Of a stretch of 50,965 nt of DNA, positions 4,505-32,484 are shown one piece after another. The stretch lies in IMG/VR virus record IMGVR_UViG_3300027956_000012, positions 1 through 50,965 of that record. One strand, written 5' to 3'. Under the pieces are notes generated by a model. It worked only from the letters and a program-made list of their open reading frames with translations. It was not told the DNA's origin and did not search any database. Source of the stretch: a virus (taxonomy: Duplodnaviria > Caudoviricetes). The position numbers were made by a program, and so were the translations under genes. Position 1 is the stretch's first letter. The number at the start of each line of letters is the position of its first letter.

Positions 4505-4831
4505 CTATTTAATAATCCTAAGTGCCTTAACATCCACACCAAACTTAGCAGCAATCTCATCCATAGTAAGAATAGTTTCGTTTACAACACCCTTATTAAA
4601 TTGCTCTTCGGTAAGGAGCTTACCGTTAATGTACCAAGCTCTACCACCATCATCCCCGTATTCTACTGCAGGTCCATCTGTACGATGCCTAATACCGTTT
4701 ACCCACCACGCTTTGTAGCCTGTAACATATTCTACAGCAGGACCATCTTCACGGTGTAGAGTAGTCATCCTCTCATCATTAAAGTAGAATTTCGTACCAA
4801 ACTTATTGATATAGATATATTGCGGAGTCAT
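4505..4831 (-). CDS. HxxDGPA-repeat protein with a distinct C-terminus
   Basis: Two repeats then LTEEQFN...LTMDEIAAKFGV; own GGAAC promoter. Confidence 0.85.
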   Translation of the reverse strand: MTPQYIYINKFGTKFYFNDERMTTLHREDGPAVEYVTGYKAWWVNGIRHRTDGPAVEYGDDGGRAWYINGKLLTEEQFNKGVVNETILTMDEIAAKFGVDVKALRIIK

Positions 4832-4862
4832 ATTACAATTATAACATTGTTCCTTTAATTTG

Positions 4863-5141
4863 CTACCTCATTCTATGTATTATCTTCATGTCAGTCTTTG
4901 ACGCAATATTTACTGATACCGTAAACATAAACACATCATTTACCCACCATTCATTAATACCCCACGCTCGTTCAACAGCAGGACCATCAAGACGGTGAGA
5001 CTTATTATTTACATACCACATTTTACCACCTTCATAATATTCAATAGCAGGACCATCTTTACGATGGAGTATAGTCATCTCCGGGTCTTTGTAATAGAAC
5101 TTACTACCATGTCTGTCTATTTTAGTATACTCTTTAGCCAT
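4863..5141 (-). CDS. HxxDGPA-repeat protein, array 2
   Basis: HRKDGPA, HRLDGPA. Confidence 0.85.
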   Translation of the reverse strand: MAKEYTKIDRHGSKFYYKDPEMTILHRKDGPAIEYYEGGKMWYVNNKSHRLDGPAVERAWGINEWWVNDVFMFTVSVNIASKTDMKIIHRMR

Positions 5142-5145
5142 ATTA

Positions 5146-5406
5146 TTATTCCATTCTATCTATTAATTGTCCATTCTCTCCTGTATTAAAAATAAAGACA
5201 CCATTTACAAACCACTCTTTATAACCAAAAGCATATTCAAAAGCAGGTCCATCTAAGCGATGTCGTCTACCATTTAACCACCACTGATTACTACCTTCAT
5301 AATGTTCGATAGCAGGACCATCTCTACGGTGGAGTATAGTCTTTGCAGGGTCTTTGAAGTAAGACTTACTACCTAATCTGTCTACTTTAGTATATTCTTT
5401 AGCCAT
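5146..5406 (-). CDS. HxxDGPA-repeat protein, array 2
   Basis: HRRDGPA, HRLDGPA. Confidence 0.85.
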   Translation of the reverse strand: MAKEYTKVDRLGSKSYFKDPAKTILHRRDGPAIEHYEGSNQWWLNGRRHRLDGPAFEYAFGYKEWFVNGVFIFNTGENGQLIDRME

Positions 5407-5410
5407 ATTA

Positions 5411-5806
5411 TTATTCCATTCTATCTTTCAAAGAATCGCTACCGTTGAGCTCAAAAATAAAGACATTATCTACGTACCACCTTCTATGCCCGTTAGGCCA
5501 ATCAACAGCCGGACCATTAAGACGGTGAAAATTACCATTTACAACCCACACTTTTTTTCCATTAGGTAGTATAATGGCTGGACCATCAGTGCGATGAATG
5601 ATATCATTTACATACCACTCTTTACGACCACTAACATAAACACCTGCAGGACCATCCTCACGATGCCTCTTACCATCTATATACCATTCTTTACTTCCGT
5701 CATCCCATTCAACAGCAGGTCCATCCTCACGATGAAGTATTTTCATCTCCGAGTCTTTATAGTAAGACGTTCTACCGTATTCTGATTTTATGTACTGCTC
5801 AGCCAT
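5411..5806 (-). CDS. HxxDGPA-repeat protein (4 repeats), array 2
   Basis: Four ~22-aa repeats; AATAAATA 5 nt upstream of ATG. Confidence 0.85.
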   Translation of the reverse strand: MAEQYIKSEYGRTSYYKDSEMKILHREDGPAVEWDDGSKEWYIDGKRHREDGPAGVYVSGRKEWYVNDIIHRTDGPAIILPNGKKVWVVNGNFHRLNGPAVDWPNGHRRWYVDNVFIFELNGSDSLKDRME

Positions 5807-12149: not shown

Positions 12150-13235
12150 TTACTTATAATCTGTTCTGAGAAATAATAGCTTTTTATTACGTGGTTTAAG
12201 CTTATTCATATCTGCTATAAAATTACCTACAAGCGCTGGTTGGTAGCCATTAATAACAACAAACTGAAAAGCATCAGGTAATTGAGTTTTTAAATTTTCT
12301 ACCTGACCATCGGTAAACCAAACATTTCCAACATAATCACCATTGTTGTATTTAGAATTTATAAACTGCACAACAGGATCCATAGATGTACCACCGGAAC
12401 TAAAATTTTGATTTGTCCACTGTTTTAATTTATTAAAGTCTTTTGCGCCAAAATCAGGAGAATCAGCATAAGGACCATCTGTCCATAGAATAACTTTCAC
12501 GGCAAATGTTTTACTCTGCGAAAAGGCATTATATATTTTTTTAAGTTCGCTTAGAAATCCATTCATAATACTATCACTAATAGAACCAGATGTATCAATA
12601 GCAACAATGATCTTACCGACATCCTTAACAACACCTCTTCCAGGTAGCATTATAGGCTCTACACCACCAAATCTTTGCCCGAATGTTGATTTTTTAATTT
12701 TAGAAAATGTCGCTCTACCTGGTCTTGTCTCTGATATAAGGTTTTTAAGAATTCTAGCCCAATCTGTTTTAGTGGGAAAGTCAGCTGGCACACCGATACG
12801 CTTACCACCTTTCCCTTGACCTCTAGATTTACTTGCTTCTTTAATTGCTGCCTCTTGATCTTTGTTAGCTTGCTCAATAGCTTGCCTCATAGCCTCACGT
12901 GTCATAACAGGCTTATCACCCTTACCGCCTGGTGTACCATCAGATCCAGGTAATACTTCCGCATCACCAAACATCTCTTCAAAAGTTGTATCATCTGGTA
13001 TAATATCAATAATAGGCGCAGCACTACCTTGCGTACTTACTGTCGGTATAGAACCAGGTTTAGGTTCGTTTCCTTGCTTACTATCACCATCTTTACTATC
13101 ACCATCATTACCTTCATCTGCATCATCAGGTAATACCTTGTATTTATCGGAAGCTTGACCTTGTCCTTGACCTTGACCAGGCTTACCTACCTTAACTTTT
13201 TGTAAGTCACTTATATTAGTTTTAAATGCTTTCAT
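12150..13235 (-). CDS. vWA-domain protein (DUF2201 C-terminal-like)
   Basis: MIDAS DTSGS, GGT, FTDG; low-complexity G/Q/D N-terminal half. Confidence 0.85.
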   Translation of the reverse strand: MKAFKTNISDLQKVKVGKPGQGQGQGQASDKYKVLPDDADEGNDGDSKDGDSKQGNEPKPGSIPTVSTQGSAAPIIDIIPDDTTFEEMFGDAEVLPGSDGTPGGKGDKPVMTREAMRQAIEQANKDQEAAIKEASKSRGQGKGGKRIGVPADFPTKTDWARILKNLISETRPGRATFSKIKKSTFGQRFGGVEPIMLPGRGVVKDVGKIIVAIDTSGSISDSIMNGFLSELKKIYNAFSQSKTFAVKVILWTDGPYADSPDFGAKDFNKLKQWTNQNFSSGGTSMDPVVQFINSKYNNGDYVGNVWFTDGQVENLKTQLPDAFQFVVINGYQPALVGNFIADMNKLKPRNKKLLFLRTDYK

Positions 13236-13238
13236 TGC

Positions 13239-14126
13239 TTAACCTTTTTCTTTTGATTTTTGCTTAGCTTCTTTTTCAGATAACTCTACAATCTTAGCAT
13301 TACCATTACTATCAATAGTAACAACTTCACCATACCTATTTGATTTTTTATCGTATATAATATCACCGACAGCAATAGGCTCATCAGGTTGATCACCTTC
13401 ACCTTCGCCTTGGTCTTCACCTTCGTTTGGTGGTAGTAGAGATATTAATTCTCTATAGATGCGTTCTGGTGACTTACCACGACAAGGTAATAGCGTACCA
13501 TTGAATTCAAATGTACCATCAGGATTAGTGATTATACCGTTTTTAATCATATAGTATCCCCACTTATAAATTAACTCATCATTAATTTCAATATCTGTTG
13601 CGATATTCCACAACGAAATTTTTTGGTTCCACATATTAACTAACTGTCTTTTATTATGTCCACGTGCTACGTGATCTTTAAAGATATGCAGAAGCTCGTG
13701 AGCTATAATACCTAAGAATAGCTTACTACCCATAGGTAATGTATTAAAGTCATCAAGTGTAGGGTCTTTTGCATTCTCTTCCTCTACACCAGGGTCCCAG
13801 ACAGCCTCTTCTAACCCTGAAACCATACGTCTTGTAAACTCAGGATTAATATATAAGTTGTGATCCTTATCAACAGCCATCGTTCTAAAAGTTTGATTAT
13901 TTGGATCAACGACTTTAATATTAATCTTATCAATCAAATAACCAAAGTACTGGTTACGTTTTTTTAATTCAAACCGTAACCCAGCTAGAAACTTTCTAAC
14001 TCTTTCTTCAGACCATTCTTCTGTTGACTTATCAACACCTTCAATAAATCTTAATGATGACTTACAGTTAGTATCATTAGGATACTCTTTTAAAAGCTCT
14101 CTAAATTGCTCATTAAAACATCTCAT
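13239..14126 (-). CDS. HEXXH metallopeptidase (DUF2201 N-terminal-like)
   Basis: TMAVD...LYINPEF...AHELLH...WNIATDIEIN. Confidence 0.85.
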   Translation of the reverse strand: MRCFNEQFRELLKEYPNDTNCKSSLRFIEGVDKSTEEWSEERVRKFLAGLRFELKKRNQYFGYLIDKINIKVVDPNNQTFRTMAVDKDHNLYINPEFTRRMVSGLEEAVWDPGVEEENAKDPTLDDFNTLPMGSKLFLGIIAHELLHIFKDHVARGHNKRQLVNMWNQKISLWNIATDIEINDELIYKWGYYMIKNGIITNPDGTFEFNGTLLPCRGKSPERIYRELISLLPPNEGEDQGEGEGDQPDEPIAVGDIIYDKKSNRYGEVVTIDSNGNAKIVELSEKEAKQKSKEKG

Positions 14127-15829
14127 ACGTAATTTGGTAGTGTACCGCTTTTCAATTGAGAATTAAACTTATTAAGTATGTCGTTAATTTTTTTAGCTGC
14201 TTCAGGACTCATAGCTGGTACAGCAATATCTTCTGCTTCTTCTTCATCTTCACCTGCAAAGGCTCGAGCGTTACCAGTAACATCAGTTATAATCTCATTA
14301 ATCATATTAATAACCCATGTAACACCTTCTGTATTATCAGCTGATTTAAGAGTACTAACTATATGACTTCTAAACAGCTTAAGATCATCCATCATCGCTT
14401 TATTAGCGATAGCAGAAAAGAGAATAGATGCTGTATTAGGTTCAACAGTATATATTGAATTTATAACGAATAAGTACGCGAGACCTGTATCAACAAGATC
14501 TGCTTTTGCTTCTTCTGTTTTAGCAGCTGTAAAGCTATCATCAAACTTTTTAACAAAATTACGAAGGTTACTTTTGAAAACCGATAAGTTTTGCGTTACT
14601 TGACTTTCGTTAACTCCAGGACCTTTAACAAGCATTTCAGGTTTACTGAGAATCTCAGCGACATCAATAAGCGAGTTAGCTATAACAAATTGCTTAAAGT
14701 CTTCACCAAATTGCTTACCACAAATAGAACTAACGCTTGCTTGAAGCTCAAACCACTGATCTTTAGTAATATTATTAAAACTATCTTTTGATCCGATAAC
14801 TCTATAAATTGCACCAGAGGTTGCAACTAAGTTACGTGGGTTAGGTCTTTTTGTTGGATCACCTTCTTGTGCCGGTCTATCGTAAAAGTTAACATCTGGA
14901 TCATCAGAGATGAAATCCATTAATATAGGATGTATTATAGGATTATCTGTACCAGGCATTTTTGATTTTTCAGCCCATTTAGCCCAACCTTCGAAATCAA
15001 GTTTGAGCAAATAAGGTGCTAATCTCTCTTTAAGAGCAGGTACTAGATCAATAATGCTATAACCTTCACCCCAGTTACCAGCACAATGTATTCTCCAATC
15101 ACCTTGAATAGTATATTTACGTGCGATTGTTCTCTCATCAAAGTTTGTAATATCAAACAGTGTGTTTTGTACATCTTGATTTGCTTGGTTTAATTCGTCA
15201 AAGAATAAAAATCCAGCAGAGTCTGGTGACATTGTCATAATCGCAACCCACGGTACAGGAAGCTCTGTTAAATAACCTTTCTTTTCTGGTGATGTTGGAT
15301 CAGGAATACCTGATAGTAGAGTGGGATCTATCGTACTAGCAGCTACGTTAATGTAAACAAAGTGTGTTTTAAGTGCTTTCTCAAGCTTATCGATAGTAGG
15401 ATTTGCTTTGAGAAGATCTGTCATTTCAATAAATGTTCTACCTAACGCAGCCGCTCTCGCTTTACCTCTTTGTGAGAAAATAGCTGACTTACCAATACCA
15501 GCTTCACCGTAAATAATAGCAGAATATCCTAAATTTCTCGATGACGGTAATTCATCTAATACATTAAGTGCAAGGTTAAGTCCATTGTAGTCCATCTCAA
15601 CAAGACCTTCATTAGTATAATTAACATCTGAATTACTACCAGCTTTTGCAATAATATCTGATAGTTGTTTATACATACTCCTATCAGACTTACTCGTCAC
15701 AGGTTTAATAAAAGACGGTCTTTCTGGCATTTTTGGTGCCGCGTAAGGAGACTTTGTAGAAGCCTTTGTGGGTGTGGTTGCTGGAGCTTTTTTAGCTTCT
15801 GAAAGAAATTGAAGATAATGATCTGTCAT
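14123..15829 (-). CDS. MoxR-type AAA+ ATPase
   Basis: Walker A GEAGIGKS, Walker B LFFDE, AGN, PALKER, PNPR; ATAAATA upstream. Confidence 0.85.
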   Translation of the reverse strand: MTDHYLQFLSEAKKAPATTPTKASTKSPYAAPKMPERPSFIKPVTSKSDRSMYKQLSDIIAKAGSNSDVNYTNEGLVEMDYNGLNLALNVLDELPSSRNLGYSAIIYGEAGIGKSAIFSQRGKARAAALGRTFIEMTDLLKANPTIDKLEKALKTHFVYINVAASTIDPTLLSGIPDPTSPEKKGYLTELPVPWVAIMTMSPDSAGFLFFDELNQANQDVQNTLFDITNFDERTIARKYTIQGDWRIHCAGNWGEGYSIIDLVPALKERLAPYLLKLDFEGWAKWAEKSKMPGTDNPIIHPILMDFISDDPDVNFYDRPAQEGDPTKRPNPRNLVATSGAIYRVIGSKDSFNNITKDQWFELQASVSSICGKQFGEDFKQFVIANSLIDVAEILSKPEMLVKGPGVNESQVTQNLSVFKSNLRNFVKKFDDSFTAAKTEEAKADLVDTGLAYLFVINSIYTVEPNTASILFSAIANKAMMDDLKLFRSHIVSTLKSADNTEGVTWVINMINEIITDVTGNARAFAGEDEEEAEDIAVPAMSPEAAKKINDILNKFNSQLKSGTLPNYV

Positions 15830-16039: not shown

Positions 16040-16107
16040 TGGTGGACGTTGGGGAATCGAACCCCGTCCGCGACTCGTTAGAGTCACGTCGAACCCTAAG
16101 GACGCCC
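16040..16107 (-). ncRNA. 68-nt tmRNA tRNA-like-domain-only RNA
   Basis: GGGCGTC...GGTTCGAC, hairpin GTGACTC/GAGTCGC, GGAC, T-arm GGGG-TTCGATT-CCCC, ACGTCC-ACCA; G3-U70 pair. Confidence 0.75.
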
Positions 16108-16108
16108 T

Positions 16109-16624
16109 TTAAATCATTTCCTTGATCTGATCTAGACTCAGAAACATTGATCCATATTTAGGATAGACAACATCGACGCAGGCGTTGATATATCGAGGAT
16201 CTTCTTCTTTCCAGAAGATATTCTTTCTTCGCATGACCGTCTTAGAATGCACGTGCCCGTGAATGTTGCATTTACGGCCACGCATTTCATCTGGATGAAT
16301 TGGGCAGTGTGTCAACCACATTCCTTTGTATTTAAGCATACCATGAATCTCTTGAAAAACAGTTGCTTGATCCGCTGTTGACACCATATCATCATGGTTA
16401 CCTTTAATAAGGATTTTGCGTCCAGGTAGAGTGCTAATAAGCTTAAGCGAATCGTTATCAAAAGCGACATCACCGAGCATGTAGATCACATCATTTTTTC
16501 TGATGGTCTTACTCCAATCATCGACAAATAGTTCGGTGTTGTGTTGTGTAGAATCCACAAAATCTCGAAACTTTGCAATGTTTCTATGACCGAGGTGTGG
16601 GTCAGATATAAAAAAAACGCTCAT
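16109..16624 (-). CDS. Calcineurin-like metallophosphoesterase
   Basis: SDPHLGH, LGD, GNHD, HGHVH. Confidence 0.9.
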   Translation of the reverse strand: MSVFFISDPHLGHRNIAKFRDFVDSTQHNTELFVDDWSKTIRKNDVIYMLGDVAFDNDSLKLISTLPGRKILIKGNHDDMVSTADQATVFQEIHGMLKYKGMWLTHCPIHPDEMRGRKCNIHGHVHSKTVMRRKNIFWKEEDPRYINACVDVVYPKYGSMFLSLDQIKEMI

Positions 16625-16635
16625 ATACAATTATA

Positions 16636-17235
16636 TTATAGTTCCTTTGCTATGTAAGAGCTTTCGTCATTAAGATAAAGTTCTATGGATGGTAGCGCTA
16701 AGTCAATATGATCAAACCGATGACTTCCACCTAGATAAGATACTGACGAGGAGGAAACAATACCTTTTAAATGATCGCTTGTATCTTGAGAATCTATAAG
16801 TTCATCATCCAGATCCAATAAAAGCATAGGTTTACAAACATAATCCAGTTCTTTAATATCCAATCCTTCATATGAATCAATCATAGGTTGGGTTACATGG
16901 TTAATTTCACCTGTAACAAAATTAGTCATAGGTATATCTTTAACAAAGATAGCATTACTTTGTATAAAAGATCCACGAACTACAGGATTAATAAGAACAC
17001 ACGGTACACCAAGCTTTGATGCACAATTTGCAGCGTAAAAACCACCGAGGGACGTTCCAACATACACCAAGTTTTCAAGGTGCTCTGTTTCTGTTAATAT
17101 ATAACGTAATATATTATCGTATGCGTCAAAGGAATTATACGATAATGGATATATCTTATCCAATTTGGATAAAGCTGCAATCTTATCGGAGTCGGGATTG
17201 TATGCGCTATTAAAGCCGTGTAGATAGACAATCAT
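16636..17235 (-). CDS. YqiA/YcfP-family alpha/beta hydrolase
   Basis: YLHGFNS, GTSLGG, INP, DELID, GGSHRF. Confidence 0.9.
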   Translation of the reverse strand: MIVYLHGFNSAYNPDSDKIAALSKLDKIYPLSYNSFDAYDNILRYILTETEHLENLVYVGTSLGGFYAANCASKLGVPCVLINPVVRGSFIQSNAIFVKDIPMTNFVTGEINHVTQPMIDSYEGLDIKELDYVCKPMLLLDLDDELIDSQDTSDHLKGIVSSSSVSYLGGSHRFDHIDLALPSIELYLNDESSYIAKEL

Positions 17236-17511: not shown

Positions 17512-17694
17512 TTAAAATTCATACTCACTTAGTTTATCGCTCACAGAAACTTGAACAGAATCCCAAACAGAATTCTCAACAGAACTCCGAATAGAATCCC
17601 TAATAGAATCCCAAACAGAATCGTAAACAGAACTCCCAACAGAATACCTAACAGAATTATCAACAGCTTTTGTTACATTAAAATTCATACTCAT
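17512..17694 (-). CDS. SVxx tetrapeptide-repeat miniprotein 4
   Basis: MSMNF...(SVxx)n...KLSEYEF; start corrected from paralogy. Confidence 0.75.
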   Translation of the reverse strand: MSMNFNVTKAVDNSVRYSVGSSVYDSVWDSIRDSIRSSVENSVWDSVQVSVSDKLSEYEF

Positions 17695-17872
17695 TGCATT
17701 TAGCTTGTACAGAAACCCTAACAGAATTCCTAACAGAATCCCTAACAGAACGCTCAACAGAATTCCCAACAGAACCCCTAACAGACCTCAGAACAGAAAC
17801 CCTAACAGAACGCTCAACAGAATTCCAAACAGAACCCTTAATTGCTTTTGTTATATTAGAATTCATACTCAT
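17678..17872 (-). CDS. SVxx tetrapeptide-repeat miniprotein 3
   Basis: Same architecture; overlaps its neighbours. Confidence 0.75.
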   Translation of the reverse strand: MSMNSNITKAIKGSVWNSVERSVRVSVLRSVRGSVGNSVERSVRDSVRNSVRVSVQAKCNEYEF

Positions 17873-18050
17873 CTAGTTTAGCTTGTACAGAAACCCTAAC
17901 AGAACGCTCAACAGAATTCCAAACAGAAACATAAACAGAAGCCCAAACAGAAACCCTAACAGAATCCCAAACAGAATCCCAGACAGAATCCTCAACAGAC
18001 CTCCCAACAGAATCCTCAATTACTTTACTTACCTCAAAATTCATACTCAC
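17856..18050 (-). CDS. SVxx tetrapeptide-repeat miniprotein 2
   Basis: Same architecture; ATG start possibly at 18044. Confidence 0.75.
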   Translation of the reverse strand: MSMNFEVSKVIEDSVGRSVEDSVWDSVWDSVRVSVWASVYVSVWNSVERSVRVSVQAKLDEYEF

Positions 18051-18234
18051 TTAGTTTATCGCTCACAGAAACTTGAACAGAATTCCTAACAGAAATCCAC
18101 ACGGAATCCTCAACAGAATTCCCAACAGAACGCTCAACAGAATACTCAACAGAATCCCGAACAGAATCCCCAACAGAACCCCAAACAGAATCCCGAACAG
18201 AATCCTCAATTACTTTTGTTACATCAAAATTCAT
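18034..18234 (-). CDS. SVxx tetrapeptide-repeat miniprotein 1
   Basis: MNFDV...(SVxx)n...KLSEYEF. Confidence 0.75.
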   Translation of the reverse strand: MNFDVTKVIEDSVRDSVWGSVGDSVRDSVEYSVERSVGNSVEDSVWISVRNSVQVSVSDKLSEYEF

Positions 18235-19619: not shown

Positions 19620-19708
19620 TGGTGAGAGTGGAGGGATTCGAACCCCCAAACCAATCCGATTACAGTATTATAAAGGCACGACTTAGAAGGTCGCTCTGTT
19701 ACACTCCC
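19620..19708 (-). ncRNA. D-arm-less tRNA-like RNA with Arg (TCT) anticodon loop and 30-nt extra region
   Basis: Acceptor GGGAGTG/CACTCTC-ACCA, arm GCGAC-CTTCTAA-GTCGT, canonical T-arm; only 7 nt where the D-arm belongs. Confidence 0.75.
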
Positions 19709-19715
19709 ATATATG

Positions 19716-20339
19716 TTATTTAACGTAGAATTTTTTAAGGACTACTTTCTCGATACCGATATTACGATCATAAATCTCTTTTGCAAGCTTATTTCTGATC
19801 CAATTACGTTTAAAATTATTTTCACTATTTGTAGGATCTTCAACAATATACTTCATTAAATCATTTTCATTAACATAATTAATAAAATCTTGTTTGGTTG
19901 TTGTTAGAAAGGGATGAAAGATAGTGAAATTATCAAATGCTGTACTCTCTTGAATAGGCTTATACTCAGGTGTACCTTTAAGGCAGTTATCAAGATAATT
20001 CTCTACACAGTCGTTAAGGTGATGCGCGGTAATGAAATTACCACCAATTTCACTCATAGCAGACAATCTAAACTCTCTAAGACCGTTTTCAGATAGATCT
20101 TTATAGTAAACATCTTTTCTTGTAAAGACGCAATAATCAAGAATATCAAAATTTTTAGCGAATGAACTTACAGCATCTTCCATTGCAGCATTAGCTTCTT
20201 GAACATTATGATTAAAGTGTAAAATAGAAAACTCTTTTCGATATTTCACTTTAAGCCAGTGTGCTGCCGCAATACTATCAATTCCACCTGAGATAAGAAC
20301 GGTAAAAGGCTCTTTTGGTAACTGTAAGCATTTGATCAT
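19716..20339 (-). CDS. tilS: tRNA(Ile)-lysidine synthetase, catalytic domain only
   Basis: SGGIDS PP-loop, HFNH, TAHHLND, HPFL, EDPTN, RNWIR. Confidence 0.9.
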   Translation of the reverse strand: MIKCLQLPKEPFTVLISGGIDSIAAAHWLKVKYRKEFSILHFNHNVQEANAAMEDAVSSFAKNFDILDYCVFTRKDVYYKDLSENGLREFRLSAMSEIGGNFITAHHLNDCVENYLDNCLKGTPEYKPIQESTAFDNFTIFHPFLTTTKQDFINYVNENDLMKYIVEDPTNSENNFKRNWIRNKLAKEIYDRNIGIEKVVLKKFYVK

Positions 20340-20406: not shown

Positions 20407-20853
20407 ATGAAAGATACTGATAAACGTTTAGAAGATCCTAGGATTAAAGGAGATATTGCTGAAAAGCTTTTTGAGTTAGAATGTATTAAGCGAGGTATTG
20501 AGCTTTTTATCCCGAGCACGGCCGGCGGTAGAATCGATTATGTTACATACACTAACAATACTTTTCAAAAAGTTCAAATTAAATATATTAGCTCTTATAA
20601 TAATACCATTCAGATATCATTTACAAAGCCTCAAAACGGTCGAAGAGATCAAGACGGTAAGCCTATTTATAAAAAATACAGTTCAGATGAAATAGATTTA
20701 TTTTTAGTGTACTGTCCTGATACAAATCAATGGTATAATATACCTATGTCTATTGCTGATAAGCAGCGAGGTATATCTTTACGTTTATCAAATGAACCAC
20801 CAAAGAATAATAATATGGCTATGGCTAATTTTGCTAGAGATTATATTTGGTAG
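20407..20853 (+). CDS. PD-(D/E)XK homing endonuclease (I-Ssp6803I-like), free-standing
   Basis: KGDIAE...IDYV...KVQIK...YSSDEIDLFLVY; TAAATA upstream. Confidence 0.8.
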   Translation: MKDTDKRLEDPRIKGDIAEKLFELECIKRGIELFIPSTAGGRIDYVTYTNNTFQKVQIKYISSYNNTIQISFTKPQNGRRDQDGKPIYKKYSSDEIDLFLVYCPDTNQWYNIPMSIADKQRGISLRLSNEPPKNNNMAMANFARDYIW

Positions 20854-20922
20854 GGCGACTGTGACTCGAACACAGAATGAGAGCTTATGAAGCACCTGTT
20901 ATTACCTTTTAACTACCGCCCC
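20848..20922 (-). tRNA. tRNA with CAT anticodon, probably tRNA-Ile2
   Basis: Cloverleaf with CCA; loop TTCATAA; co-oriented with and close to tilS. Confidence 0.85.
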
Positions 20923-20975: not shown

Positions 20976-21173
20976 TTATGTGGAAGCTTTAGCTTCTTTA
21001 CGAGCATTCTTCTCTGCAGTAATTTCATTACGACGAGCTTTAGCTACAGCAATGATTTCTTGCAACGCTTTACGAGCACGAGTTGATGCAGATGCATTAC
21101 CTTTAATAAATTTCTCATCATCTACAGAGAAAATACCAGCAAGTTCAATTAGTTGTTCTGTTGTCTTAGTCAT
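20976..21173 (-). CDS. Histone H1-like (Hc1-family) protein
   Basis: KF.KGNASASTRARKALQE.....K.RR.EI. Confidence 0.75.
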   Translation of the reverse strand: MTKTTEQLIELAGIFSVDDEKFIKGNASASTRARKALQEIIAVAKARRNEITAEKNARKEAKAST

Positions 21174-26410: not shown

Positions 26411-27055
26411 CTAAACTTTACCTCTTTTCTTTCCGTTTTGCGGAATAAAGTTAGTAAGATACTTAGAAAAGGATTTAACAAGATTAGGTTGTGAATATTT
26501 ATAACCTGCACGTTGTACACCATTAAATCCTTCCTTGCAGTATATAATATATAAATCGCTTAGTTCTTTTTGTTTGTTTAAAAATTTGAGATGTATACTC
26601 TGTTGTATCTGCTTTTTTTTCGCTTCTTTTGCTTTAGCTGTATGATATGAAATAATTCTACCTCTTTTCCAACCTAGAGGTATTTCATTTACAGTTTTTT
26701 TTTCTTCTATACCGTTCGTAATCCAAAAAGTACCAGATTGTGAATTATTTAAACCACTCTGTGAAACCGATTGAGCTATACTAAACTTTCTTCTCAGCCA
26801 CCCATACATTTTGTTGTTTAGTCTATTAGGTATCATCATTGCAGCAGCTCTAATTAATTTATAGTTATTAGGATAAATTTTGACTAATAATTGATGTGCT
26901 ATATAATGCTCTTCTGGTGTGAGATCAACAAGATTGCTTTTTTCGTCTAAGCCGCCCATACATCTTGGAATAATATGATGAACTTCCTTATATCCCTTTA
27001 GAGTTCTTTCCTTTCCTCTTGTTATAAGTTTGTCGTATATAAGCTCGTAATTCAT
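26411..27055 (-). CDS. HNH homing endonuclease (Mob-like), free-standing
   Basis: EVHHIIPRCMGG...NLVDLTPEEHYIAHQLL; WITNG. Confidence 0.9.
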   Translation of the reverse strand: MNYELIYDKLITRGKERTLKGYKEVHHIIPRCMGGLDEKSNLVDLTPEEHYIAHQLLVKIYPNNYKLIRAAAMMIPNRLNNKMYGWLRRKFSIAQSVSQSGLNNSQSGTFWITNGIEEKKTVNEIPLGWKRGRIISYHTAKAKEAKKKQIQQSIHLKFLNKQKELSDLYIIYCKEGFNGVQRAGYKYSQPNLVKSFSKYLTNFIPQNGKKRGKV

Positions 27056-27100: not shown

Positions 27101-27108
27101 AAAAAAAG

Positions 27109-27379
27109 CTCCGACTCTTGGGATCGAACCAAGGACCCGATGATTACTTACCACTATAACTTTCGTTACCCTTGCAGTTTGTGGTCTGGACTTTCTCATT
27201 ACCTTCAGCATTATCTGTTAAGGTACCAACCGTTAAGTCTCTACACGTTCCTCTTTTAAGGCTTCGCTCGGGATTAGCATTTTAAAGCGTTCCCCGAATT
27301 TGATTGGTTTTTCAAAAAGTATTTCTACTTTAAGCTGCCATTACAACAGTCATCTGCTCTGCCGCTGAGCTAAGTCGGA
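27109..27379 (-). tRNA. tRNA-Asn(GTT) interrupted by a group I intron
   Basis: Exons 27379-27346 and 27146-27109 join to GATGA-CTGTTAA-TCATC in a 72-nt cloverleaf. Confidence 0.9.
27147..27345 (-). mobile_element. 199-nt group I intron at anticodon position 35/36
   Basis: P1 CUGU/GCAG with U-G at the splice site; AAATTCGGGGAA, AATCCCGAG, GTAGAGACT, AAGTCC core; P3 ACCAATC/GGTTGGT; terminal G. Confidence 0.9.
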
Positions 27380-32083: not shown

Positions 32084-32484
32084 TGTAGTTTTTTTAATTC
32101 AGAAATCAATCTTTGTATTTGAGCTTTTGAACAATCTGGTCGTTTGACATATTCCAATACTGCGTCAACTGCAGTACCACAACTTAGCCCGCATAGCTTA
32201 TTTGCTGCCTGTGCAATTGTCTCTTTATAGTTTTCCTCTGCATGATTAATGCTTTGAATTTCAATCAAATGATCTACAAGGTCAGCAATCTTTTCATCGC
32301 TTAATAGCACCATATCAGAGTATGGGTTTCCTTTAAGGCAAGCCCAAGCTAATCGCAAGCGATTGCGCCAACCTCTGTTTTGAGGATCGTGTACAAACAA
32401 CGAAATTTCTGTACCGCAATGCATATCATATTCGACATACAATCCTTCGCTAATGTAGTCACATTTAAAAAATTTACCTTTCAT
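32080..32484 (-). CDS. Hypothetical protein
   Basis: 134-aa packed ORF. Confidence 0.7.
   Translation of the reverse strand: MKGKFFKCDYISEGLYVEYDMHCGTEISLFVHDPQNRGWRNRLRLAWACLKGNPYSDMVLLSDEKIADLVDHLIEIQSINHAEENYKETIAQAANKLCGLSCGTAVDAVLEYVKRPDCSKAQIQRLISELKKLQ

Follow-up and report, generated by a model that had tools for sequence, protein, structure and literature searches.

RNAs that keep the tRNA-like domain of tmRNA and carry no tag reading frame are already in print, namely that of phage DS6A and the plastid genes of about 65 nt. Mycobacterium phage DS6A is listed as 'TLD only' (tmRNA Website tmID 11587; available text of PMC4131195 and PMC11915505), and a DS6A-like molecule is described as a strong inhibitor of tmRNA, whether chargeable or not, perhaps by titrating SmpB (available text of PMC4131195, citing Mao 2009). 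The tmRNA inhibited was the endogenous one of E. coli (Mao 2009, as cited in the available parts of PMC4131195 and PMC11915505). The plastid (Mallomonadaceae) tmRNA genes measure about 65 bp and have no tag frame, and organellar tmRNAs of this kind are conserved together with SmpB, as stated in the accessible part of PMC11915505. The same part of this 2025 database gives 79 phage tmRNAs among 97,179 entries, and its entries without a CDS are mostly permuted (72, with 9 in standard order). Nothing further on the tag-less form was found in the accessible portions of PMC11662646, PMC7162821 and PMC13450312. In the open-access literature searched, neither a survey of tag-less tmRNAs across phage metagenomes nor a report of a short-arm tmRNA turned up, although the supplement of the PMC11915505 database may hold such sequences.

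The locus described here lies in a 51-kb virus record (the window, that is, the whole stretch of DNA that was analysed), a large tailed-phage contig with an estimated completeness of 24% that encodes a T4-type neck protein, a virion structural protein, tRNAs and a PP-loop gene. It holds a real, conserved 68-nt gene shaped like the tRNA-like end of tmRNA alone (Table 1). An earlier note had proposed exactly this, a 68-nt mini-tmRNA with a tRNA-like domain and no tag frame, and the RF00023 model, the compensatory changes among homologs and the precedent of DS6A all bear the proposal out; its letters at 16040-16107 are the reverse complement of the window, and the strand, which it had not given, is minus. 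The order of the elements is that of a standard one-piece molecule, with the 5' acceptor strand first and the CCA end last (RF00023 model 1-374 within 68 nt). The predicted fold gives probabilities of 0.86-1.0 to the six acceptor pairs including G3-U70, to the 8-pair helix 2 and to the 4-pair T-stem, and leaves C7 opposite an A with no pair.

The individual hallmarks that the note had read from the letters hold as well. G3-U70, A73 and the CCA end are present in the predicted pairing and the encoded letters, so that the alanine identity (G3·U70 plus A73) is complete; the D-loop analogue, unpaired and ending UCGAC, and the GAC-type connector before the T-arm are both found in sequence and predicted fold. 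Helix 2 is capped by a tetraloop (8 pairs and UAAC), and merely 20 nt separate the D-loop from the connector, with no pseudoknots, mRNA-like domain or tag frame. The T-stem of 4 bp and the 7-66 mismatch, in which C7 faces A, are likewise confirmed, with the refinement that the stack can be read as 7/4 or as six pairs, an unpaired A and four pairs. The canonical 12-pair geometry, a 7-pair acceptor on a 5-pair T-stem, is thus replaced by six firm pairs, an unpaired junction and four pairs, and the acceptor-plus-T stack counts 11 steps, not 12. What is new here is this 11-step arm, the existence of a short-arm and a 7/5 allele of one gene, and a contig that carries both a mini and a full tmRNA.

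Table 1. Parts of the mini-tmRNA gene and neighbouring elements, in window positions
Feature	Position	Strand	Basis or remark
Mini-tmRNA gene, 68 nt, tRNA-like domain only	16040..16107	minus	sequence, tmRNA-end pattern, RF00023 model, predicted fold, homologs
Unpaired A, 3' acceptor strand with U70, discriminator A73, encoded CCA	16040..16050	minus	sequence, predicted fold
T-arm, 4-pair stem, UUCGAUU loop	16051..16065	minus	predicted fold, T-arm match in local Rfam scan
GAC connector preceding T-arm	16066..16068	minus	sequence
Helix 2 stub, 8 pairs and UAAC loop, replaces pseudoknots and tag frame	16069..16088	minus	predicted fold
D-loop analogue, 12 nt, unpaired, ends UUCGA	16089..16100	minus	sequence
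5' acceptor strand G1-C7; G3 pairs U70; C7 unpaired	16101..16107	minus	predicted fold; pairs 4-6 covary
Calcineurin-like phosphoesterase gene	16109..16618	minus	stop codon one base before mini-tmRNA G1
Sigma-70-like promoter match, 10/12, upstream of phosphoesterase	16630..16658	minus	weak: 5 sites vs 4.4 expected in shuffles

A single match to the tmRNA-end pattern lies in the window and none turned up in 100 shuffles, and the folding energy is unexceptional (z -1.48; 17 of 200 shuffles fold equally well). The letters of the gene are identical in contigs from three studies (X3 record 5, possibly the window's own contig; X2 record 3; X7 record 11), and therefore the short stem is not an assembly error; X4 record 3 has the same letters too, with one difference outside the gene.

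Two of the checks suggested with the original proposal, an Infernal search with the tmRNA model and a look for covariation among phage homologs, speak for it. Searched as a whole model, RF00023 aligns to the gene over model positions 1-374 with the message deleted, at 41.6 bits (E 6.2e-17), a score below the gathering cut-off of 47 bits; the next tRNA-like element in the contig reaches 16.1 bits. ARAGORN makes no call on the gene, Rfam at gathering score, including the tRNA model, does not find it, and a local Rfam scan matches only its T-arm, as does the permuted two-piece tmRNA model RF04321 (10.9 bits). A permuted two-piece molecule is ruled out, because the element order is standard and the T-arm does not precede the 5' acceptor strand. 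Nor does the gene fit a tRNA-Ala (RF00005), there being no D-stem and no 7-nt anticodon loop with an Ala anticodon, or a standard tmRNA (RF00023), given the score below cut-off and the absence of tag frame and pseudoknots.

Targeted scans for the short arm returned six viral and nine metagenome loci, some of which are the same contigs, and brought the short-arm minis to 10 distinct sequences including the window's, nine of them from related phages. Proteins in common with the window were found at 14 of these 15 loci, and a called tRNA lies within 1.2 kb at 11. When the ten sequences are aligned, 96.2% of the cells are paired and 6 of the 16 pairs change on both sides, with a covariation score reached by none of 500 shuffles; these rows are related by descent and several columns are imposed by the search pattern, and the count of further pair types was reached by 242 of the 500 shuffles. 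The D-loop motif and the 3' end are built into most of the mini search patterns. At the junction, the 7/4 reading gives a formed pair in three of the nine rows with letters (and by eye in one more, the gapped row L122), and the 6/5 reading gives one in two of ten, so that the arm is most safely described as six firm pairs in the acceptor, a weak joint and a T-stem of four pairs. The loop of helix 2 differs among homologs, with no constant anticodon, which indicates that it is not an anticodon. By position-wise identity the short-arm minis are nearest one another (up to 46/49), with 38 for full tmRNAs and 37 for 7/5 minis, and they appear about equally far from both of these. A scan with the T-arm alone gave at least 121 loci (34 of the 64 parts of the viral collection), mostly tRNAs, and added one more short mini, L433, in which no CCA is encoded.

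The canonical 7/5 version stands at the same place in a sister strain, found in runs X2, X7 and X12, whose sequence near the locus is about 92% identical (over 351 bases, 23 letters differ and there are 5 gaps). Seven changes separate its allele from the window gene, five of them substitutions and two of them insertions of one base. The inserted bases lie opposite each other and give the T-stem an additional A-U pair; of the substitutions, one makes 7-66 a pair, three are in the open loop and one is in the connector, and helix 2 is identical, so that all seven differences keep or improve the fold. In two more distant phages, L128 and L133, the neighbouring protein is 77% identical and the short arm stands at the same locus with the same mismatch, and for this reason the short arm is probably old there. 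To judge from these few lineages, compared without a tree, the short-arm and 7/5 forms are probably interchangeable.

A scan of bacterial genomes for the exact 11-step end gave 15 loci, with a pattern that required an encoded CCA and a fixed length and that other short-arm forms escape. In two of them, chromosomal tmRNAs, the G and C runs are shorter than in the sampled relatives, and these two are probably homopolymer errors; a third case is an island remnant in a Kangiella genome with a similar 4-pair T-arm. Among 301 genomes of the phylum of a Planctomycetaceae MAG, the short T-arm was found in no credible tmRNA end (five matches, none with the full 4-pair stem by eye).

Tag-less minis are common in viral contigs. 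The mini pattern matched at least 120 loci in 36 of the 64 parts of the collection, from which a total of about 210 is estimated; 94 of these loci were parsed as domain-only genes, 78 of them distinct, and 26 were left unparsed. G3 stands opposite U70 in all 78, with U70 fixed by the pattern and G3 free, and a 7/5-type pattern with any other base at position 70 found a single locus in the whole viral collection, one unlike a tRNA-like domain. Taken together, these two results indicate strong selection on the alanine identity. The 12-pair 7/5 stack is found in 75 of the 78, the remaining three having the short arm, and a GAC connector in 55 of 75 distinct 7/5 minis. At least 78 distinct tag-less viral sequences thus compare with the nine standard-order entries without a tag frame in the 2025 database.

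A search with the phosphoesterase led to 12 related loci, and the five records searched whole all contain a full tmRNA and no mini. The full tmRNAs of related phages measure 305-337 nt, and LALAA ends the tag of each of the four that were translated; the capacity for tagging is often kept in this phage group. The earlier note had considered that relatives with a full tmRNA at this place would make the gene a one-off deletion remnant; the phosphoesterase-found relatives carry theirs elsewhere and none at the window's locus, and the remnant is rejected. No full tmRNA was found in the window's own record, which is a fragment. Ten mini-pattern records were searched over their full length: one, G044, has a full tmRNA as well, and five complete records with a clear mini have none (L008 was not parsed as a clear mini); an ARAGORN tmRNA call in L185 covers the mini itself and is not taken as a full tmRNA. 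The G044 full tmRNA has an ordinary tag, GKNNVVDSGLALAA, ending LALAA. The two genes lie on one contig, at G044:C1:24318-24622 (full) and 32194-32262 (-) (short-arm mini), and their acceptor stems share six of seven pairs, which suggests duplication or exchange between them. No SmpB gene was found in five related contigs, one of them a complete record, and the mini would therefore use host SmpB. Separate searches for Pth and for release-factor genes were also negative in five related contigs each, with one complete record per set.

Four-pair T-arms also occur in full tmRNAs of another phage group. Those at L333:2176-2531 and L394:2179-2531 have a 4-pair T-stem with an extra unpaired A, keep seven acceptor pairs and encode no CCA, and the same type of 3' end recurs in L338 (beside a DUF1501 gene), L376, L400 and L419. 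Of the six loci scanned with RF00023, L333, L394 and L430 pass. These phages gave no match to a window structural protein in the four of five records searched, a comparison made with no positive control. The full tmRNA at L141:7394-7730, which ARAGORN misses and Rfam finds, has one extra base in the 5' strand of its T-stem. Among cultured phages, the full tmRNAs of L139 and L333 have no full-length match.

The mini-tmRNA lies directly behind the phosphoesterase gene (Table 1), with the same stop-plus-one-base spacing in L125, L128 and L133, and given this spacing it is likely cut out of the phosphoesterase transcript. The upstream promoter match is a possible source of that transcript. A cut at G1 (16108-16111) would end the phosphoesterase mRNA one base past its stop codon, with the spacing kept in three relatives, and an mRNA so cut could be a candidate tmRNA target. 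Directly downstream, at 12150-15829 (-), lie genes for an AAA ATPase and then for separate metallopeptidase-like (DUF2201_N) and vWA-like (DUF2201) proteins; the ATPase has two distant matches in cultured phages and no relative in the viral contigs, the neck protein matched no cultured relative, and a blastn search with the mini-tmRNA gene found no GenBank phage record that covers 80% of the query.

Other features of the window were recorded in passing. Tandem short ORFs of four-residue repeats (SVxD/SVxN) occupy 17512-18234 (-), with similar ORFs after the phosphoesterase in L143 and L144, and about eight paralogous short ORFs with a common 'LHRxDGPA' motif lie at 429-1631 and 4505-5806 (-). 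At 19620-19708 (-), directly following the PP-loop gene, there is an 89-nt tRNA-like gene, missed at default settings, with a 7-pair acceptor, a T-arm, CCA, a collapsed D-arm and a variable region of about 30 nt; one arm of it resembles, as we take it, the anticodon arm of tRNA-Arg(UCU). The PP-loop gene itself (19716-20339 (-)), presumably TilS-like, is close to a tRNA with a CAT anticodon (20848-20922 (-)), with a PD-(D/E)XK nuclease gene between them on the opposite strand. A Histone H1-like Hc1 family protein (PF07432), here in a phage, is encoded at 20976-21173 (-), and its 2293 homologs gave no clue to the host. A group I intron (RF00028, 68.5 bits) splits a tRNA-Asn(GTT) at 27108-27379 (-), and just downstream of it an endonuclease-like ORF occupies 26411-27055.

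On function, we tentatively prefer, with a probability of roughly 45%, a reading in which the mini-tmRNA, charged with alanine and bound to host SmpB, would compete with tmRNA at stalled ribosomes and add one alanine and no tag. The RNA would be co-transcribed behind the phosphoesterase stop codon, released by RNase P and 3' trimming, and charged with alanine; bound to host SmpB, it would enter stalled ribosomes at their A site, and SmpB and these ribosomes would be drawn away from full tmRNA. Having no resume codon, it could not complete rescue alone, and the peptidyl-RNA would have to be cleared by host back-ups such as ArfA/ArfB, drop-off with Pth, or RQC (the existence of back-up rescue routes is stated in the available text of PMC8012679). 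On balance, SsrA tagging and degradation would be reduced during infection, and the 11-step arm would be a variant tolerated in this lineage.

Such competition by a charged RNA is favoured by the invariant G3·U70 of the 78 parsed minis, together with the nearly empty search for other bases at position 70, and by the covariation across the ten short-arm sequences. It also agrees with what the accessible parts of earlier studies describe: SmpB binds the D and variable loops (PMC3989591, PMC8363625) and promotes the charging of the isolated tRNA-like domain (PMC3989591), peptidyl transfer has been assayed with an RNA that consists of the domain alone (PMC3895274), and, at second hand, a similar RNA inhibits E. 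coli tmRNA. The bases that contact SmpB are named in the available text of PMC8363625 and PMC2584231, and they appear to have counterparts in the mini, where G18-A19 and C20 of the D-loop likely correspond to the SmpB site G19-A20-C21. Several points weigh against it: G044 has its mini beside a full tagged tmRNA, all five phosphoesterase-found relatives have full tmRNAs, and an 11-step stack with an unpaired junction, in a class where 75 of 78 minis have 12 pairs, could hinder accommodation in the A site. The pair in G044 argues in particular against a simple shut-off.

A rather unlikely alternative is that the mini is a tag-free helper in rescue, the minimal working core of a phage tmRNA, which would take the stalled chain and displace the broken mRNA while host back-ups finish the task, so that more ribosomes are recycled and proteins are not marked for decay. 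Minis and full tmRNAs do mostly alternate (both in one of ten mini-pattern records, the mini in none of the five relatives with full tmRNAs, and five complete clear-mini records without a full one), the alanine identity is selected, and organellar tag-less tmRNAs are conserved with SmpB (available text of PMC11915505). Rescue in H. pylori, however, needs at least the resume codon, a resume-codon-to-stop mutant being lethal (accessible part of PMC2584231), the DS6A-type RNA inhibited E. coli tmRNA according to second-hand accounts, and genes for Pth and for release factors were each absent from five related contigs, one record per set being complete. Stand-alone tag-free rescue, as the earlier note had offered, is in conflict with that lethal mutant and with the failure to find SmpB, Pth or release-factor genes in five contigs per search.

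That note had named an SmpB decoy as its other choice, and a decoy acting off the ribosome is also somewhat improbable. Such an RNA would titrate SmpB, or it would occupy a host defence enzyme directed at tmRNA or tRNA ends and thereby protect a full phage or host tmRNA, with charging serving stabilisation alone. For a sponge of this kind a short, weak-jointed arm would cost little, sister strains have either the 7/5 or the short-arm allele at one and the same locus, the coexistence in G044 fits a shielding role, and charging was dispensable for inhibition by the similar RNA (available text of PMC4131195). The invariance of G3·U70 in 78 of 78 minis, with essentially no non-U70 form, nevertheless exceeds what a sponge needs, and a passive decoy leaves it unexplained, since the DS6A-like inhibitor worked chargeable or not (same text); nor does the accessible part of the literature on phage decoys and on tmRNA/SmpB name such a defence target. 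The mini beside a full tagged tmRNA in G044 fits neither the decoy nor the rescue role simply.

The gene is very unlikely to be a degenerate tRNA-Ala or to supply alanine to a non-ribosomal enzyme. The alanine identity would suit this reading, as would the setting of most short-arm homologs among tRNA genes (11 of 15 loci within 1.2 kb), but there is no D-stem and no constant anticodon in the hairpin loop, ARAGORN and the Rfam tRNA model are silent, and the tmRNA model gives 41.6 bits against 16.1. Origin from a full tmRNA gene, as its decaying deletion remnant or its attachment site, as the junction mismatch and short T-stem, the full tmRNAs of relatives and the similar 4-pair T-arm of the Kangiella remnant might suggest, is most improbable and largely refuted by compensatory changes across ten sequences, by both ends being present and closed by a new hairpin, by the same short arm at the same locus in L128 and L133 (neighbouring protein 77% identical), and by the seven sister-allele differences, all of which keep or improve the fold.

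A wider and doubtful extension of the preferred competition would make phage mini-tmRNAs abundant, unannotated and active anti-tagging RNAs which, charged with alanine, would enter stalled ribosomes with host SmpB and pass them to tag-free release, and which, alongside a full phage tmRNA, could set the balance between rescue and degradation, in this lineage through an 11-step arm. If minis are active, phages would commonly interfere with trans-translation by an RNA of 65-85 nt, and if the 11-step arm works, it would show SmpB-guided A-site entry without 12-pair geometry. The window copy bears on whether a domain without a message achieves rescue, jams the ribosome or acts only as a sponge, and on whether a 12-pair arm is needed, and the short-arm and 7/5 sister alleles provide a ready natural experiment.

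Set beside known systems, the window gene is closest in kind to that of DS6A: both are one-piece phage genes with the 5' and 3' ends of tmRNA, G3·U70 and A73, and a closed helix in place of message and pseudoknots. DS6A differs in its length of about 81-84 nt, its longer, internally looped helix 2, its 7/5 stack and its lack of an encoded CCA, whereas the window mini has 68 nt, a perfect 8-pair hairpin, an 11-step stack and an encoded CCA, and comes from a large tailed phage of fresh water or soil samples. Standard tmRNAs (RF00023), full phage tmRNAs included, share the motifs of the tRNA-like domain; unlike them, the mini has no pseudoknots, resume codon or tag. The 8/4 or 9/3 tRNAs likewise have a 4-pair T-stem, within a cloverleaf of 12 branch pairs, as given in the available text of PMC5389517, in contrast to the 11 steps of the mini, which has no anticodon arm. 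The plastid tag-less tmRNAs, likened to it here from descriptions, are of similar size and without a tag frame, and tag-less tmRNAs occur in mitochondria too. In the accessible part of their description the organellar forms are apparently the sole tmRNA of their system, whereas the phage RNA would act beside the tmRNA of its host.
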